This document shows positions 36,097-42,425 of a DNA stretch of 64,000 bases, piece after piece. The stretch spans positions 128,001 to 192,000 of the forward strand of contig CAVPXM010000021.1 of assembly GCA_963709405.1 (NCBI GenBank), written 5' to 3'. How positions within the stretch are numbered: the stretch's first letter is position 1; every line of letters begins with the position of its first letter. The notes below the pieces were generated by a model. It had not been told where the DNA came from and did no database searches. It saw only the letters and a list, made by a program, of their open reading frames with translations. The stretch comes from an uncultured Nitrososphaerales archaeon (GTDB lineage: Archaea; Thermoproteota; Nitrososphaeria; Nitrososphaerales; Nitrososphaeraceae). The position numbers were made by a program, and so were the translations under genes.

Positions 36097-37171
36097 TTAA
36101 TCATATACTAGCCTTAGGTCTTCAGAACAGGAACGAAAAGTCAAATTAATTTTATTCAGCTTAAACTTGGTACTTGATAGCCTCTGTCGTGCTACATAAA
36201 TAGCTTGTGGGGAAGAGTCGCATCCGATCCAATTTCTTGCCAACCTTGCCGCAACAACTAATGATGTCCCTGACCCACAAAAGAAATCGGCAATTAGCCC
36301 GTTAGCACAGGAAAATTGGCCAATTATCCTTTCTAACAATTGTTCATGCTTCTCTGTCTCATAACCAGTTGAATATCCATAACTCTCTACATCTAGCCAG
36401 ACGTTGTCCAGTACCTGTCCTGTTCTTGGGGGGAATCCAATACTCGGCATACTTAACTCCATCTCGTTTTCGGATAAATTCTAGCTTCTTACCTGTTTGT
36501 AGCCAATATTCTTCGAGTGGAATCTCTGGAAAGCGGCGTTCATAAATCTTATAATTCTTCGCTGCCTCTAAAGCCCTTGCTCTAGTCCATTTCCATTGGC
36601 CTCTTTCTGGCACGTATCCGAGTAGATTGTATCGCATTGTTGGTCTGTCTACATTACTCCAAAATCCCATCCATTTTGAGGGTACTGTATTCTCTGTCAT
36701 AGGTAGCGAAAACCTTGCTGAGTGATCCTTCGAATACCATAATATCGAATCGTTTGCAATATGCATTCTGTCGATGGACTTAAATTGATAAAGCAAATTC
36801 TTTCTCCTTCCCCTTTTTATTATAATTTCGTTTCGGAAGTTACTGTATCCAAATAGCTCATCCATAACTACCTTCACATAGTGTACCATATGCCAATCCA
36901 AGTGAATAAATATAGATCCTGAAGGTGATAGCAAATGTTGAATACTCTGCAGTCGGGGATACATGCTATCCAAATAGATTTTTATGGGATTCTGCCCTCT
37001 AAATGTATCATCGAATGCAAGCTCTTGACTGTTACGCGTTCTCAAAAAGTACTTATCTCTTGTTAAAAAAGGAGGGTCAATGTATACGAGATCAATTTTA
37101 TTTTCGAATCCATTTTCTATTAAATATTTCATAGCCTCAAGATTGTCGCCGTAAAAAAGAATATTCTTCAT
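36097..37171 (-). CDS. Site-specific DNA methyltransferase (beta class, Mod-like); frameshift at a C6 run near 36430
   Basis: GDNL, IDLVYIDPPF, FRNEII, DFFCGSGT, WIGCD. Confidence 0.85.
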
Positions 37172-37484
37172 TGCGTTATTTCTGACTTTTGCTGCTTTTC
37201 CCAGTTTTCGGTTTACCTAAATCCCTACGTCGAGACGTGTGATAAGTGGGCATCATTTCCGATACTGATTGATTTTTATGTAAGACTTATTCATTTAGTT
37301 ACCGTTCAAACTGTGTTATCATGTCGTAATCCGAAACTACTTCATCGCTTGTACTGCACTGTAAATGGAGGAGTCCACAGAAGAGCTTACCGATTCTGAT
37401 CGCAGAAGGTCGCTTTCATCCTTCTTGGCCTCAGAATCTCGAATTTTCAGAATTATTGAATGATATAATATTACAATTATATAT

Positions 37485-38090
37485 TTGCGAAATGATCTAA
37501 CTCGAGGTAAGTTGGTAGTAATGACCGACTCGTACATGGGGATATTTATGCCCGCGGATATTTCTTCCAGAATATTGAGGTTTATTGACGGTAAGCTAGA
37601 ATTTCCAATTATAGGTGGGAATGAGATAATGGCGTCTTTTTATCTTTTCGGAAGGGATTTTGGAGTTAGTAGTGAGGAACTATTTATTGCAATTGATTTA
37701 GCAAAGAGAACCGTGAGTCAACTTACTAATGAGATAAAAGCCCTTGGCGAAACGTCTACTAAGATGAATTCCGAATCGATCCGCGAAAATTATACCCGAC
37801 GTATCTTGCAGTTGCATAGTGAACACCAATTGCAAAATATTGAAATGAATAAAAGGATTTCCGGGGACCCCACTATCTTGTCTGCATGTTTTGTGCAGCA
37901 TGTAGCATATCATCATCAACAATACTTTTTTGAGCTTTTTCCACCATTGAGAGAGAACCAAATACCTGCAGACCTCAGATCGCGATTGCAGCAAAGAATG
38001 GTCCTATTGGGATTTAACGTAAAAAGGGAAGATGCGATGTCATCGGGGGGTTCTATCAACAATTTTTTAAATTGGTTCAAGGAGCATTGA
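37485..38090 (+). CDS. Hypothetical protein
   Basis: 201-aa ORF, probable start at ATG 37521. Confidence 0.65.
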   Translation: MRNDLTRGKLVVMTDSYMGIFMPADISSRILRFIDGKLEFPIIGGNEIMASFYLFGRDFGVSSEELFIAIDLAKRTVSQLTNEIKALGETSTKMNSESIRENYTRRILQLHSEHQLQNIEMNKRISGDPTILSACFVQHVAYHHQQYFFELFPPLRENQIPADLRSRLQQRMVLLGFNVKREDAMSSGGSINNFLNWFKEH

Positions 38091-38181
38091 TTCCTCAATC
38101 AATACTAGTTCGCCAAGTAGTTCACATAAGTAAGGGTTGCCACGTTGAACCGAGATGCATGCGTGCATCATTATCTTTTCA

Positions 38182-38850
38182 TCATTTGTCGTCTTGTTCA
38201 TATTTAGCTTTAACATACTCAATGAGCTTGATCGCGTCCAATTCTTTCAAGCTAATTCTGTTAGAAGCAATATATGATCTAAATGATTCGAACTGGTTCG
38301 AATATTCTGGGCTATTATCTACTGAATAGTCAAGGATCTCGTTGTAGTTTCGTAACGGGAAGTAAAATTTCTTTGCTACCCTGGTAAGTATTTTTCTTGC
38401 ATGTTTGTCAATAATACCTCGCTTTTCAGCTAGGAATAGATTAAATCGAATGTCAATCATTGCTTCAGATTGTAATCTATAACTTCCTTCCTCAAACGTA
38501 ACGGCAACTTCATCATCAGCTGTAACTTTGCCTTTTCTATATAGATCGAAGATCTTCCCTATTCCTATCATGCCAAATCGCTCCAATTCTACCGCTCTCA
38601 ATGCTCCTAGACTTGCCGCACCTACGACCATAACATTTTTTTTGGCTACGAGTTGGTATACTTCTATTGGTGTGGGTGGATAATCTTGGAGAAACATGCC
38701 GTCAACCAAACCAACCACAGAGATGTCTGAGGATAATCCGAGTCGCAAGAGATCACCTTTTTTAGCTGGTGGCTTGTAATCGGCATTAAAAATGGCCTTC
38801 GCCTTCTCGTTACTCATACTAGGACCGAGAAAAATGATAGGTTTTCTCAT
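38182..38850 (-). CDS. tfuA: TfuA-like protein
   Basis: IIFLGPS, PPAKKGDL, GLVDGMF, GAASLGALRAVEL..FGMIGIGKIF, DDEVAV, SEAMIDIR. Confidence 0.93.
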   Translation of the reverse strand: MRKPIIFLGPSMSNEKAKAIFNADYKPPAKKGDLLRLGLSSDISVVGLVDGMFLQDYPPTPIEVYQLVAKKNVMVVGAASLGALRAVELERFGMIGIGKIFDLYRKGKVTADDEVAVTFEEGSYRLQSEAMIDIRFNLFLAEKRGIIDKHARKILTRVAKKFYFPLRNYNEILDYSVDNSPEYSNQFESFRSYIASNRISLKELDAIKLIEYVKAKYEQDDK

Positions 38851-40157
38851 TTCTTAAAAAATTTCCTCCCTCTCCAACCCACAACTGACTTGGTTATCTT
38901 GAATGTTTCAAGACCAGGGTACTATGGCCCGAACTACCGGAACCTTGAGTCTAGGATTTGTTAAATTTACGATTATCGCTTGGGTCAGGCCCGCCCTCCT
39001 CAGACGGTCTAAGATCAACTTTATATCATCGAGTATATCAGCATTGTAAAAACTTGTTATTTCAGAATACTTTATCTTTCTATCAGACGGAACGAATCGC
39101 CATGAACGTTTTTCATCCGTGTTCTCTTGGCTGTATTTTATCTTTCTCAGGTCGTCCCTAGCCCCTTGAATATTGGCTCGCTCTTGTTTGTGATACCTCC
39201 GTGATCGCGCGCAACAATGCAATTCGGGCATCGGGATGAGTGCCATGTCCTTCTGCTAAATATCCATAATCATGAGTAACCCATTCAACGCTTGCTGCAT
39301 TGAACGATGGAATACCTATTTCTGTTGTAATCTCCTTTACAATTAGAGATATGTTATTTCTCTTGAATATTTTGAGGAGAGTTAGTATGGGTTCAAATTT
39401 CATATCGGAAAAATCAACATCAGAAAATACACAAGACTCGTCCTTAAATTTATCAATAGTTACTGTAGGGGTGGGAAAGCCATGGGATTTCAATGCATTC
39501 GCGATATGCCTAAGGTAATAAAATGGAATTGCACTAGCACGCAATTCTGCCAAGCTTAGGGCATCTCGTTCAATCAGTTCGCATAGAGAATGACATACAG
39601 CCTCTTCCATCACATTTCCAGAAGCTAATCCATTTGTGTGATAAAATGAGAATGGATTCACAGACGGAGGCCTAGGTTCATATCTAAAAAGAGCAAGGGA
39701 GGCAGGAACCATTACTTCTTCATTGTTCAGCAAGTCAAAGCCTGATAGATAGTCCGTTTGCATATCATCTCTAAATTGGAACCTAGTCGGTTCACAGATT
39801 TGATCAGGATGAACAACTGTGTATTTCTTGGATAGTTCTTTATAACTTGATTGAATGAGATTTCGATTGTCTGTATTTGGTAATGAGGAGTATCTCTCGA
39901 TAGATTCCATTAACGCACTTGCCATAGCATGATTTCTTGTCGGACCTTTTCCACTATATACCCAGATGTAATCCTCTGTCCCTGGAACAACTGCCGAGTA
40001 ATTAGGGATTGCAAGTACATCTAATCCAGTGATGTCAGCCAATCTTGTGAGACCAATAATTTTTGATAAAGGCTTGATATTTTCTAGAGTTAGGTTAGGC
40101 GGCTGAATCCTTGATGTTCCGCTCGCCAGTCCATTTCATTCGACTTTCCAATTGCAA
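38847..40157 (-). CDS. ycaO: TfuA-associated YcaO (thioamide-forming type); frameshifts near 40125, 39180 and 38915
   Basis: GTSRIQPP..GLTRLADITGLD, GKG..ASALMESIER, TNGLASGN..ELIERDA, ALLRAITEVSQ, IQGARDD, PVVRAIVPGLE; stop overlaps the tfuA start (ATGA). Confidence 0.9.
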
Positions 40158-40260
40158 TATTTAATTGACTATTCCCTTTAGAAGCCAGCATTTATTTCTT
40201 GCCAAATATCTAAGCTATTCATTAAGATTATATATTAGAATCTTGCAATCGTTTTGCTAA

Positions 40261-40437
40261 TTGAACTCAAGACAGAGGGATGCTGAGATTATTAGCGATA
40301 TTCTGCTCAAAGCAGCGAGTGAACCGGAGTTCAGAAATCGGCTTATAAGAGAGCCTGCGGAGATTTTGAATCAATATAATATTTCAGCTGAGGCCAAAAC
40401 AGTCATCAAGAACAGCATTATTGATCTTACTCAATGA
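40261..40437 (+). CDS. 58-aa NHLP-clan (nitrile hydratase leader peptide-like) protein (not in ORF track)
   Basis: MNSRQRDAEIISDILLKAASEPEFRNRLIREPAEILNQYNISAEAKTVIKNSIIDLTQ; TTG start with TTATATA at 40228-40234; divergent from ycaO. Confidence 0.75.
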   Translation: MNSRQRDAEIISDILLKAASEPEFRNRLIREPAEILNQYNISAEAKTVIKNSIIDLTQ

Positions 40438-40763
40438 CGTATCTGGCAGCATGTTTTGAGAACCTTCTATGTTTATATCGAGAATAATTTTTTTGACTAA
40501 CGCGATAGCGGATAGAATTTAGATTTTTTCATTTGGTTTGCTAGATTCAAGTACAATGTGCCCCGCCTCTGACTCACACATAATCACAGGTAGCCATACA
40601 ACTTAGTGTATTCCTCCTAGTGCACTCTCTTTTACGGGGTTGCCTGCTCACCAATATCGAGATCCAATACGACAGTCATCAAAGTAGTCCAGTTGATGAC
40701 ATTGTAAGTAAATGCTCGAATTAGGCCAGACAATCATCTAAACGAGCTTCCAGGATATAAACA

Positions 40764-42425
40764 TCAGGATTTTATATGCAGTAATTTGGACAGATTAATC
40801 TCGAAACCCGAAACTGGGATTCTCAGTTTGAAGTTATCTCTTGCCAAAGATGAAATTTCGCCTAATTCACCAACGCGTTCAAGGTCTACGATAACTTTCG
40901 CACATCTTCCGTTGATGAAAAATGGAAGTTTCTCAGGCTCAGTTTTCAGATCCTTGGCAAAAGATGATGATAGTATACTTTGTAATACTGATTTTGCCTC
41001 TGTAAAGTTAGACTTGGTATTTGCAAGCAATACTGCTAAATGCCACTGCTCTAGATCCTCATTGTCACTAAACGCCTTTCCAATTTCAAATATATTCTGT
41101 GGGTAGGTTTCATGGATATTATGAGAGAGAGTCTGCATCAAAGAAGGGATTAAGGAGATGCGAAGATTGTCAAGCCCTGTATTTTGTGCACCTTCTACTG
41201 TTAGTAATCTGTCAATATCGCATTCTGTGCCCATCAGATCAAACTGCATTTTCTTATCAACAAGCCCAAAATTATTGACTTCCAGGAATCCTAGACCAAC
41301 CAACGTAATTCTAATGATATCAAGATAGCGTGAAACCGTGCTCCGATTTCCTGAAATGTTAGAGAATGGAATGGTTGGAATAAGGTTCTCAATCCCGTAT
41401 CCTATAGCAACCTCTTCTACGATATCGATTTTATCAAAAACGTCGACTCGGTATCTGGGAATACTGCAAATAATAGTAGAGCCGTTCTTTTTGATAACCT
41501 TTGCATCTAGACGGCATTTCCTTAAAGACATCAAAATTTCTTCAGTAGAAAGTTTTGTTCCAAGCGTCCGGTTGATTTGGTCACGTGTTACTATAATCTG
41601 TGATGGCTTCATATTTGGTAAATATCTCGACGCTCCTGGAGTTTCCACAACCGCAGTATGAATCATAAATCCCATATCGTTCATCGTAGTTGCTAATATA
41701 GCGATAATGTCCTCCGCAAGTTTCTGATCTGAAGAGGTTACCTCTACAAAAAGATTGTTTGTGCCTGGTTCTACTTTTGCAGATTCGCAGTTCGTTACCG
41801 GTGGAAAAGAGAGTACTCGATTATTCTTATCTAGTAACACTGTATAATTCCCTGAATTTTTTTGGAGTTGATGGTATTTGTACCCTACACCATAAGTATT
41901 CATAAATTCCTCAACTGTAATTGGCGACGATTCGTGGACATAGGTAAAGGAATAGTCGTTTGAAACCGAAGTATATTTTAGGGGAAATTTTATAGAATCC
42001 AAATCATGAAATCCTATTGATGCCTTTATTCTCTGCCTTCCGATACCATCATGGAGATCGTCTTGTACAGCAAACAATTGCTTGATATCTAACTCATCTA
42101 GTCTCAGATTTCTAGCTACTAACGCGGTTATATATGGCCGAGATAAGTTTTTCGAGATATCAACTATTATTCTATATTTATTAGTTCTAGTTAGCTTGAA
42201 TTCTGGTATTCCAATTTCTATTCCAAGATATCCTTTTAGTGCTCTAGCAATACCATAATCGGAACTGAAATCGGGCCTATTTGGATTATATTCAATCCTT
42301 ATCTCATGATCTGTTATGCTCTCGATGTCTAGAGCAATAAATGGTAACGCGTCAATAAGTTGCTTTACGGGTTTGCCAGGAAACCAGTCTGCTAACCTTG
42401 CGAGATTCAGATTTACAACCGGCAT
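40764..42425 (-). CDS. pheT: Phenylalanine-tRNA ligase beta subunit
   Basis: MPVV, EYNPNRPDF, IPRYRVDV..DIVEEVAIGYG, FEIG. Confidence 0.95.
   Translation of the reverse strand: MPVVNLNLARLADWFPGKPVKQLIDALPFIALDIESITDHEIRIEYNPNRPDFSSDYGIARALKGYLGIEIGIPEFKLTRTNKYRIIVDISKNLSRPYITALVARNLRLDELDIKQLFAVQDDLHDGIGRQRIKASIGFHDLDSIKFPLKYTSVSNDYSFTYVHESSPITVEEFMNTYGVGYKYHQLQKNSGNYTVLLDKNNRVLSFPPVTNCESAKVEPGTNNLFVEVTSSDQKLAEDIIAILATTMNDMGFMIHTAVVETPGASRYLPNMKPSQIIVTRDQINRTLGTKLSTEEILMSLRKCRLDAKVIKKNGSTIICSIPRYRVDVFDKIDIVEEVAIGYGIENLIPTIPFSNISGNRSTVSRYLDIIRITLVGLGFLEVNNFGLVDKKMQFDLMGTECDIDRLLTVEGAQNTGLDNLRISLIPSLMQTLSHNIHETYPQNIFEIGKAFSDNEDLEQWHLAVLLANTKSNFTEAKSVLQSILSSSFAKDLKTEPEKLPFFINGRCAKVIVDLERVGELGEISSLARDNFKLRIPVSGFEINLSKLLHIKS

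Follow-up and report, generated by a model that had tools for sequence, protein, structure and literature searches.

What does a backbone-thioamidating enzyme pair modify in an archaeon in which the only known archaeal target protein is not found? This question is raised by a locus at positions 38182-40437 of a 64,000-nucleotide stretch of contig CAVPXM010000021.1 (hereafter the window) from an uncultured Nitrososphaerales archaeon, an ammonia oxidiser of soil, where the genes of a YcaO enzyme and of its partner TfuA are accompanied on the opposite strand by the gene of a mini-protein of 58 residues. It has been known since 2017 that ammonia-oxidising archaea (AOA) lack methyl-coenzyme M reductase (MCR) but carry a YcaO-TfuA pair of the methanogen type (PMC5589413), eight TfuA-related clusters have been recorded in Thaumarchaeota (PMC8120280), and MCR and ribosomal protein uL16 are, according to a paper of 2026, the only characterised thioamidated proteins (PMC13063428). 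We propose that the locus is a three-gene backbone-thioamidation system in which the folded mini-protein itself is the candidate substrate, and give this reading about an even chance. What the locus presents is a known enzyme pair with a new and unusual candidate substrate, and it recasts the question of the AOA YcaO-TfuA target as a three-gene problem. The parts of the locus are:

38182-38850, minus strand: tfuA, an intact open reading frame (ORF) of 222 residues; Pfam PF07812 (TfuA), E 9.6e-36
38847-40157, minus strand: ycaO, 435 residues with three spurious single bases discounted; TTG start; the stop overlaps the tfuA start
40158-40260, no strand: divergent promoter region of 103 nt between the ycaO start and the mini-protein gene
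40261-40437, plus strand: mini-protein gene, 58 codons, TTG start; predicted four-helix product

The genes ycaO and tfuA are adjacent on the same strand, in an order that is kept in relatives, and the ycaO stop codon TGA (38849-38847) overlaps the tfuA ATG (38850-38848) within the ATGA at 38847-38850. The coupling of the two genes claimed in the original prediction, which had been made from the letters of this DNA, is thereby borne out. The same prediction had placed a 58-residue ORF at 40261-40437, on the opposite strand and about 100 bp upstream, and had described its product as free of glycine and cysteine and as carrying a leader-like motif; the translated sequence agrees in each of these points. 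Its description as unannotated was correct only in part: identical or orthologous proteins are already listed publicly as 'hypothetical protein', among them a 58-residue entry of N. viennensis and a 64-residue entry of N. gargensis; the N. viennensis orthologue carries the accession WP_158435027.1.

A conserved trio of genes

The mini-protein gene is a real and constrained gene. All 101 sampled genomes of the family and all 18 genera proved to have it (the count takes in three genomes flagged as unpublished, G098, G076 and G035); conservation in relatives had been named beforehand as a test of the proposal. The ratio of nonsynonymous to synonymous substitution (dN/dS) is about 0.06 within a genus (21 pairs), and among 26 orthologues of equal length the third codon position varies in 57 of 57 codons, the first in 34 and the second in 23. 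Within the family, conservation is just as strong in the C-terminal helix and the tail as in the docking motif discussed below: the tail ...SIIDLTQ is near-constant in most genera, and the position of the protein end is kept across the family. A TTG at the aligned position is the start codon in 41 of 44 distinct orthologues, with a TTG one codon upstream, a GTG and an ATG in one each. In the window this TTG directly follows a TAA, and in the orthologues it often stands immediately after a stop codon (loci L004-L052). The TATA box that the original prediction had assigned to the gene could be located as an AT-rich, TATA-like box, TTAAGATTATATA, at 40222-40234 and reaching to about 40236; if up to one mismatch is allowed, the window contains two copies of its pattern, against 0.52 expected, and, as read by eye, about 22 of 26 family upstream regions keep its spacing of about 25 nt to the start. 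Because the box ends only about 25 nt before the TTG, the arrangement suggests an mRNA with a UUG start codon and little or no leader across the 18 genera. Contigs from RNA libraries span the locus and are by themselves no proof of transcription.

The mini-protein gene and the enzyme genes are mostly neighbours. Among the first 29 loci of relatives, ycaO is the divergent neighbour in 26, and the remaining three have less than 260 nt of upstream sequence. A further 20 loci, picked to cover other genera and extra copies, comprise 14 linked and six unlinked ones; the latter are three extra paralogues together with single copies of genera g14 and g3, in which ycaO and tfuA are located elsewhere, still side by side. 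At the level of species loci (the best 80 of 133 confirmed loci, six of them with too short a flank), linkage holds in 44 of the 74 testable loci, in every case divergently and in 35 cases with a gap of 86-110 nt; the other 30, mostly titled Nitrososphaera sp., are unlinked. Extra unlinked paralogues, which occur in some genomes and mainly in those of genus g16 (L050:2563-2733, minus strand; L051; L052:4005-4175, minus strand), have neither YcaO nor TfuA nor any other tailoring gene close by. A pattern search of species genomes for outlying types of the mini-protein gave 30 pattern matches, of which none was confirmed.

The three genes also occur together across the class. In a sample of 301 genomes, TfuA was found in 53, namely the window genome, 39 of 39 further family members and all genomes (9/9 and 4/4) of two sister families, and its profile matched none of the remaining 248, including the 180 genomes of the largest family, f2. 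The mini-protein profile matched 52 genomes, i.e. 51 of the 53 TfuA-positive and one of the 248 TfuA-negative ones. This single match (E 0.0038, inside a frame of 308 residues) is probably due to chance, since it weakens to E 0.023 with a broader profile. Of the two TfuA-positive genomes without a mini-protein match, in one ycaO stands right at the beginning of a contig of 2.8 kb, and the other is an assembly of 220 contigs. Of the 11 peptide-positive genomes of the sister families, 9 have the genes on a shared contig no more than about 3.5 kb apart, and the system has been inherited vertically through three archaeal families. Where the genes have become unlinked both are nevertheless retained, as in 14 of 14 genomes of g14, and this retention after separation is more telling than joint absence. 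The synteny proposed as a further test was thus recovered in most lineages, together with class-wide co-occurrence. A correlation between the distances of the peptides and those of their YcaOs (20 genomes, r 0.51) reflects shared descent and was not counted as evidence.

The neighbourhood might still be transcriptional or incidental, with the mini-protein a small regulator or an unrelated protein on a bidirectional promoter and YcaO-TfuA acting elsewhere. The 30 unlinked testable loci, at which neither gene has been lost, would fit such an arrangement, as would the occurrence of helical domains like that of nitrile hydratase alpha in LigA, DesB and other unrelated proteins. We consider it quite unlikely, however: the mini-protein is found in 51 of 53 TfuA-positive genomes, against one weak match in 248 TfuA-negative ones, it is kept together with the enzymes once separated, and its near-neutral to acidic charge (8 K/R versus 9 D/E by hand count) is atypical for DNA binders.

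An intact enzyme pair of the methanogen type

In the record of the window ycaO is split over three frames. The first piece, 40157-40122, reads LQLESRMKWTGE, the second is a 294-residue ORF at 40042-39158 and the third a 112-residue ORF at 39246-38908, with a final stretch, 38918-38847, that reads ...GRKFFKK before the stop. A genome of the same genus has an intact YcaO of 435 residues at the equivalent place, in comparison with which the window carries three surplus single bases near 40121, 39178 and 38916, none of them in a homopolymer. Four public runs, each from a different study, have contigs that drop single letters at 40124, 39179 and 38917: those of run X1, which may be the source sample, drop all three surplus bases, those of X16 two of the three, and those of X3 and X6 two each, the third site being at a contig edge or uncovered. 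The frameshifts do stand in the record, therefore, but stand there in error, as the original prediction had supposed, and the pseudogene that it had named as the outcome counting against it is not what these contigs contain: they leave out the three bases, and ycaO is intact. A DNA methylase gene (PF01555) at 36097-37171 on the minus strand likewise appears as two overlapping ORFs in the window versus one ORF of 342 residues in the same-genus genome, and a ThiF gene on another contig (G000:C5:23770-24472) is also broken up; with methylase, ThiF and ycaO all split, the pattern points to single-base insertion errors scattered through the assembly. One contig of run X3 (record 10) shows 18 differences from 40222-40438 over the mini-protein gene and diverges straight after its stop codon; it represents either a paralogue or another strain within that sample.

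Both enzymes have the families of McrA-glycine thioamidation as their top match. The window ycaO pieces score 185.5 and 42.4 bits against the YcaO domain (PF02624). Three intact AOA YcaOs score 281.5 (the same-genus orthologue), 284.8 and 287.8 bits on TIGR03266, which is still the top family although the equivalog cut-off of 365 is not reached, and TfuA scores 208.8 bits (window) and 204.4 bits on NF033432, both below the equivalog cut-off of 235.2. The model of the same-genus YcaO (predicted local distance difference test, pLDDT, 84.3) is nearest to the M. jannaschii YcaO-peptide complex 6peu (E 7e-29, TM 0.84-0.87, 26% identity). Glu84, Glu87, Glu193, Glu196 and Arg197, which we take to be the ATP/Mg ligands, are invariant across 22 AOA YcaOs. 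The AOA enzyme exceeds the family profile of 376 positions by about 50-60 residues, and its variability is highest around residues 221-260. His76 (same-genus numbering, L075) is invariant in 14 YcaOs paired with the usual ...DLTQ-tailed mini-protein and is replaced by D or Q in g4 and g8, both lineages of the most diverged mini-protein; residue 76 may mark a contact site between the two proteins, although the observation is anecdotal.

The genome behind the window (4.83 Mb, 100 contigs, 91% complete) has a single YcaO locus and encodes ThiS-family and ThiF-family proteins as well as archaeal amoA. MCR alpha (PF02249) was not found in this 91%-complete genome, while methanogen control genomes were matched; the remark in the original prediction that AOA have no MCR agrees with this result. 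That the top families of both enzymes are those acting on McrA, while MCR as the only known archaeal target is not found, supports a substrate of another kind, for which the mini-protein is the best candidate so far in organisms lacking MCR.

The locus is flanked by the DNA methylase gene, by a genus-restricted ORF of 201 residues and by two PheRS genes. The 201-residue ORF (37485-38090, plus strand) is convergent with tfuA, is found in the genus only (60-72% identity) and has no family match. Neither at the window locus nor at the same-genus locus is there a protease, an exporter or a further tailoring gene, in line with the protease-free neighbourhood noted at the outset. An Rfam search of 37000-41000 gave zero matches, and a tRNA scan across the window found none. 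In a sister family a conserved protein of about 210 residues follows the mini-protein gene (L078:5402-6043 and L081:4071-4700, both plus strand), even where the latter is unlinked from ycaO-tfuA; its N-terminus looks hydrophobic, and it has no Pfam or NCBIfam match. In one sister-family genus a gene of the bile-acid:sodium-symporter family (PF01758; L078:3996-4964, minus strand) lies between ycaO and the mini-protein gene.

Fold and presumed role of the mini-protein

The AlphaFold model of the mini-protein (mean pLDDT 86.2) consists of helices 3-20, 22-30, 32-37 and 43-57 and contains no strand. A search of profiles, proposed originally for the NHLP clan of leader peptides of peptides that are made by ribosomes and modified after translation (RiPPs), gave the following matches for the window mini-protein:

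leader_NHLP (TIGR03793): E 3.7e-4, 20.3 bits, cut-off 50.9
TIGR04351: E 1.4e-3, 18.1 bits, cut-off 65
Os1348 NHLP-clan model (NF038399): E 1.6e-3, 18.5 bits, cut-off 40
Pfam Frankia_peptide: E 0.045, 14.5 bits, cut-off 48
Pfam NHase_alpha: E 0.048, 13.5 bits, cut-off 27.2

The expected kinship was thus detected, but every NHLP match, in all members, remains under the curated cut-offs. Residues 8-41 align to positions 3-36 of the 77 positions of leader_NHLP, and positions 37-77 are unmatched. At E <= 0.01, NF038399 matches 32 of 37 members and TIGR03793 matches 27 of 37, and a profile of the 37 members finds nitrile hydratase alpha chains (E 1e-7) and the NHLP structure 9cjx (E 0.0056) in the PDB. 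The motif derived from nitrile hydratase alpha, A..(D/E)P.F(R/K)..L, is present together with the helical bundle. When 1.84 billion representatives were searched with a profile, 135 matches were obtained at E <= 0.001 and 27 at E <= 1e-10; the strong ones are orthologues, and among the weak ones are typical precursors of the NHLP type that bear Gly-Gly sites, cores or tandem domains, remote relatives that are different proteins. At the level of fold the model matches Os1348 (6lk7; Z 5.3, root mean square deviation 2.4 Å, 54 aligned residues) and the proteusin precursor structure 8tb1 (Z 4.0, 2.4 Å, 47 aligned), each tied with unrelated helical bundles; Foldseek against the PDB returned none at E <= 0.001, and a protein atlas score of 0.80 to Franean1_4349, Os1348 and LigA is a lead only. 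The modelled fold would therefore be compatible with NHLP without discriminating for it. In solved NHLPs a bundle of three helices is followed by a sheet of two strands and by a flexible tail that leads to the core (PMC12537861). The model of the mini-protein lacks the two-strand sheet with its L(X)4L motif, a Gly-Gly cleavage site and core are absent, and the chain stops at residue 58. By its profile matches the mini-protein is homologous to the docking half of NHLP, and it lies outside the precursor family as defined, since its bundle is followed by a fourth helix, after which the chain ends.

From the gene identities, integrity, conservation, linkage, co-occurrence and homology observed we infer the chemistry, the assignment of the substrate and its uncleaved fate. 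YcaO activates amides in an ATP-dependent manner and TfuA frees sulfide from a ThiS-type thiocarboxylate (PMC8120280, PMC13063428). By analogy with the methanogen enzymes, YcaO would use ATP to activate one backbone amide of the substrate, TfuA would deliver sulfide from a ThiS-type thiocarboxylate, and sulfur would take the place of the amide oxygen. The enzymes would recognise the mini-protein by its helical bundle of the NHLP type, as a small folded protein, and after modification it would stay uncleaved and intracellular; this would then be a protein modification like that of McrA and uL16, and no exported peptide natural product. We favour the mini-protein as the substrate because it is the sole conserved companion of ycaO-tfuA, because it carries a fold that is recognised by RiPP enzymes, a YcaO included, through protein-protein contacts (PMC12455567, PMC12537861), because the whole protein including its last helix is under strong selection, and because the locus shows no signs of cleavage or export.

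Several of our observations weigh against this assignment. Across three families only A18, P22, F24, R25 and L36 are invariant, which is the generic signature of nitrile hydratase alpha and NHLP, and the C-terminal tail differs between families, so that no conserved modification site stands out. The NHLP matches below cut-off, the fold searches that do not discriminate, the missing sheet and the lack of a core all have to be set on the same side. The AOA YcaO has no recognisable leader-binding domain (RiPP recognition element), and the known mode of NHLP recognition is for that reason not simply transferable. The genes of McrA and uL16 lie far from the YcaO genes (PMC5589413, PMC13063428). Of the 74 testable species loci, 30 are unlinked. 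Finally, related genomes are not independent for co-occurrence counts, and the absence of both the mini-protein and TfuA from all 180 f2 genomes could be explained by a single deletion, since the genes are adjacent.

The main rival reading is a mini-protein that is no substrate but a partner, i.e. a leader acting in trans or an adaptor that activates YcaO-TfuA or presents a target encoded elsewhere. It matches the docking half of NHLP alone and has no core, no Gly-Gly site and neither Gly nor Cys; the residues invariant over three families belong to the fold and none to the tail; both known protein targets have housekeeping roles and genes that lie apart from those of the enzyme (PMC5589413, PMC13063428); and linkage and co-occurrence fit a partner equally well as a substrate. 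For a pure docking module, however, the C-terminal helix and tail would be superfluous, and within the family they are conserved like the docking motif. Moreover, no second conserved gene travels with the trio, the 201-residue neighbour being restricted to the genus, and the methanogen YcaO-TfuA works without an adaptor, as stated in PMC8120280 with reference to in vitro work. We regard a partner role as less likely than that of a substrate, but as more likely than the other alternatives.

A third option is that the mini-protein is a classical RiPP precursor whose last few residues form a short core that is thioamidated and released. Its homology to the NHLP clan, the production of thioamitide RiPPs by bacterial TfuA-YcaO pairs (PMC8120280) and the almost constant ...SIIDLTQ tail in most genera could be read in this way. 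Nevertheless, a cleavage motif is absent, a protease or transporter is not found nearby, and the tail lies within the predicted helix 43-57. The gene is single-copy, under uniform and strong purifying selection over its full length, as opposed to variable RiPP cores, and is inherited vertically across three archaeal families, as opposed to patchy antibiotic clusters. With a tail under the same purifying selection as the remainder and no protease or exporter in the vicinity, such a precursor is very unlikely. Among the three roles that the original prediction had left side by side, namely uncleaved substrate, adaptor and precursor with a short core, the uncleaved substrate is therefore favoured. 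A resemblance of the tail S-I-I-D-L to the McrA site F-G465-F-D-L (PMC5589413) is kept as a lead only, because the tail is not conserved in two sister families.

If the mini-protein is indeed the substrate, a third class of protein would join the very short list of natural backbone thioamides, the NHLP fold would gain a new use as a substrate itself, for an enzyme without a leader-binding domain, and there would be a handle on a conserved, unexplained trait that distinguishes soil and thermophilic AOA lineages from f2. A search of full-text literature, with subscription papers and supplements (AOA proteome papers among them) outside its coverage, gave no paper naming the mini-protein or any AOA thioamidation substrate. 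A bolder version, which we hold to be rather unlikely, sees in it a stable, uncleaved thioamide protein, the third kind after McrA and uL16, a 'leader-only' NHLP that would show the origin of RiPP leaders from small folded enzyme substrates, and possibly a ligand of soft metals such as copper. That the thioamide sulfur might bind copper in copper-dependent soil nitrifiers, perhaps as a pair within a dimer like that of the relative Os1348, is pure speculation, and the lack of the system in f2, a large sister family (0/180), weakens the idea.

Comparison with known systems

The closest counterpart of the enzyme pair is the YcaO-TfuA system of methanogens and anaerobic methanotrophic archaea that acts on the McrA glycine (TIGR03266 and NF033432; 6pe3, 6peu). 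It provides the top family for both enzymes and the nearest solved fold, its ycaO and tfuA genes are likewise adjacent and overlapping, and AOA YcaO homologues have been placed in the methanogen YcaO clade (PMC5589413). The AOA enzymes differ in scoring below the equivalog cut-offs (281.5 versus 365 and 208.8 versus 235.2) and in the greater length of YcaO; the window genome has no McrA match, and a conserved mini-protein gene adjoins the AOA pair.

For the mini-protein itself the obvious comparison is with proteusin-type NHLP precursors, e.g. the MprE leader with its YcaO cyclodehydratase MprC (nuclear magnetic resonance structures 8tb1 and 9cjx). Both share the helical-bundle signature (I/V)LxKAxx(D/E)PxF(R/K)xxL from nitrile hydratase alpha, and in both a small folded domain, which is predicted in the case of the mini-protein, is encoded beside a YcaO gene. 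Unlike these precursors, the mini-protein comprises the helical part only (profile positions 3-36 of 77), with a fourth helix in place of the L(X)4L sheet and without disordered tail, Gly-Gly site or core; and the AOA YcaO is a stand-alone enzyme of the TfuA type, whereas the NHLP partner is a cyclodehydratase that has a domain for leader binding (PMC12455567, PMC12537861). Os1348 of Pseudomonas sp. Os17 (NF038399, 6lk7), the most frequent family match of the mini-protein members (32/37), resembles it as a small protein like nitrile hydratase alpha that is more a protein than a leader with a core. It is bacterial and has 85 residues, however, and its cluster, as described in PMC7726476, contains a GNAT, an HEXXH protein and a SagB-type dehydrogenase, is associated with antibiotic activity and includes no YcaO or TfuA.

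Thioamitide RiPP clusters of the thioviridamide type also combine a TfuA-YcaO pair with a small gene-encoded substrate, here a candidate one, but those have a leader with a variable core, more tailoring enzymes and a patchy distribution (PMC8120280), none of which is seen here. Finally, the E. coli YcaO that modifies ribosomal protein uL16 differs in having no TfuA, in belonging to another YcaO subfamily and in a substrate gene that is unlinked (PMC13063428). As a YcaO that thioamidates a folded protein by recognition of tertiary structure, it is at the same time the precedent that further protein substrates exist.

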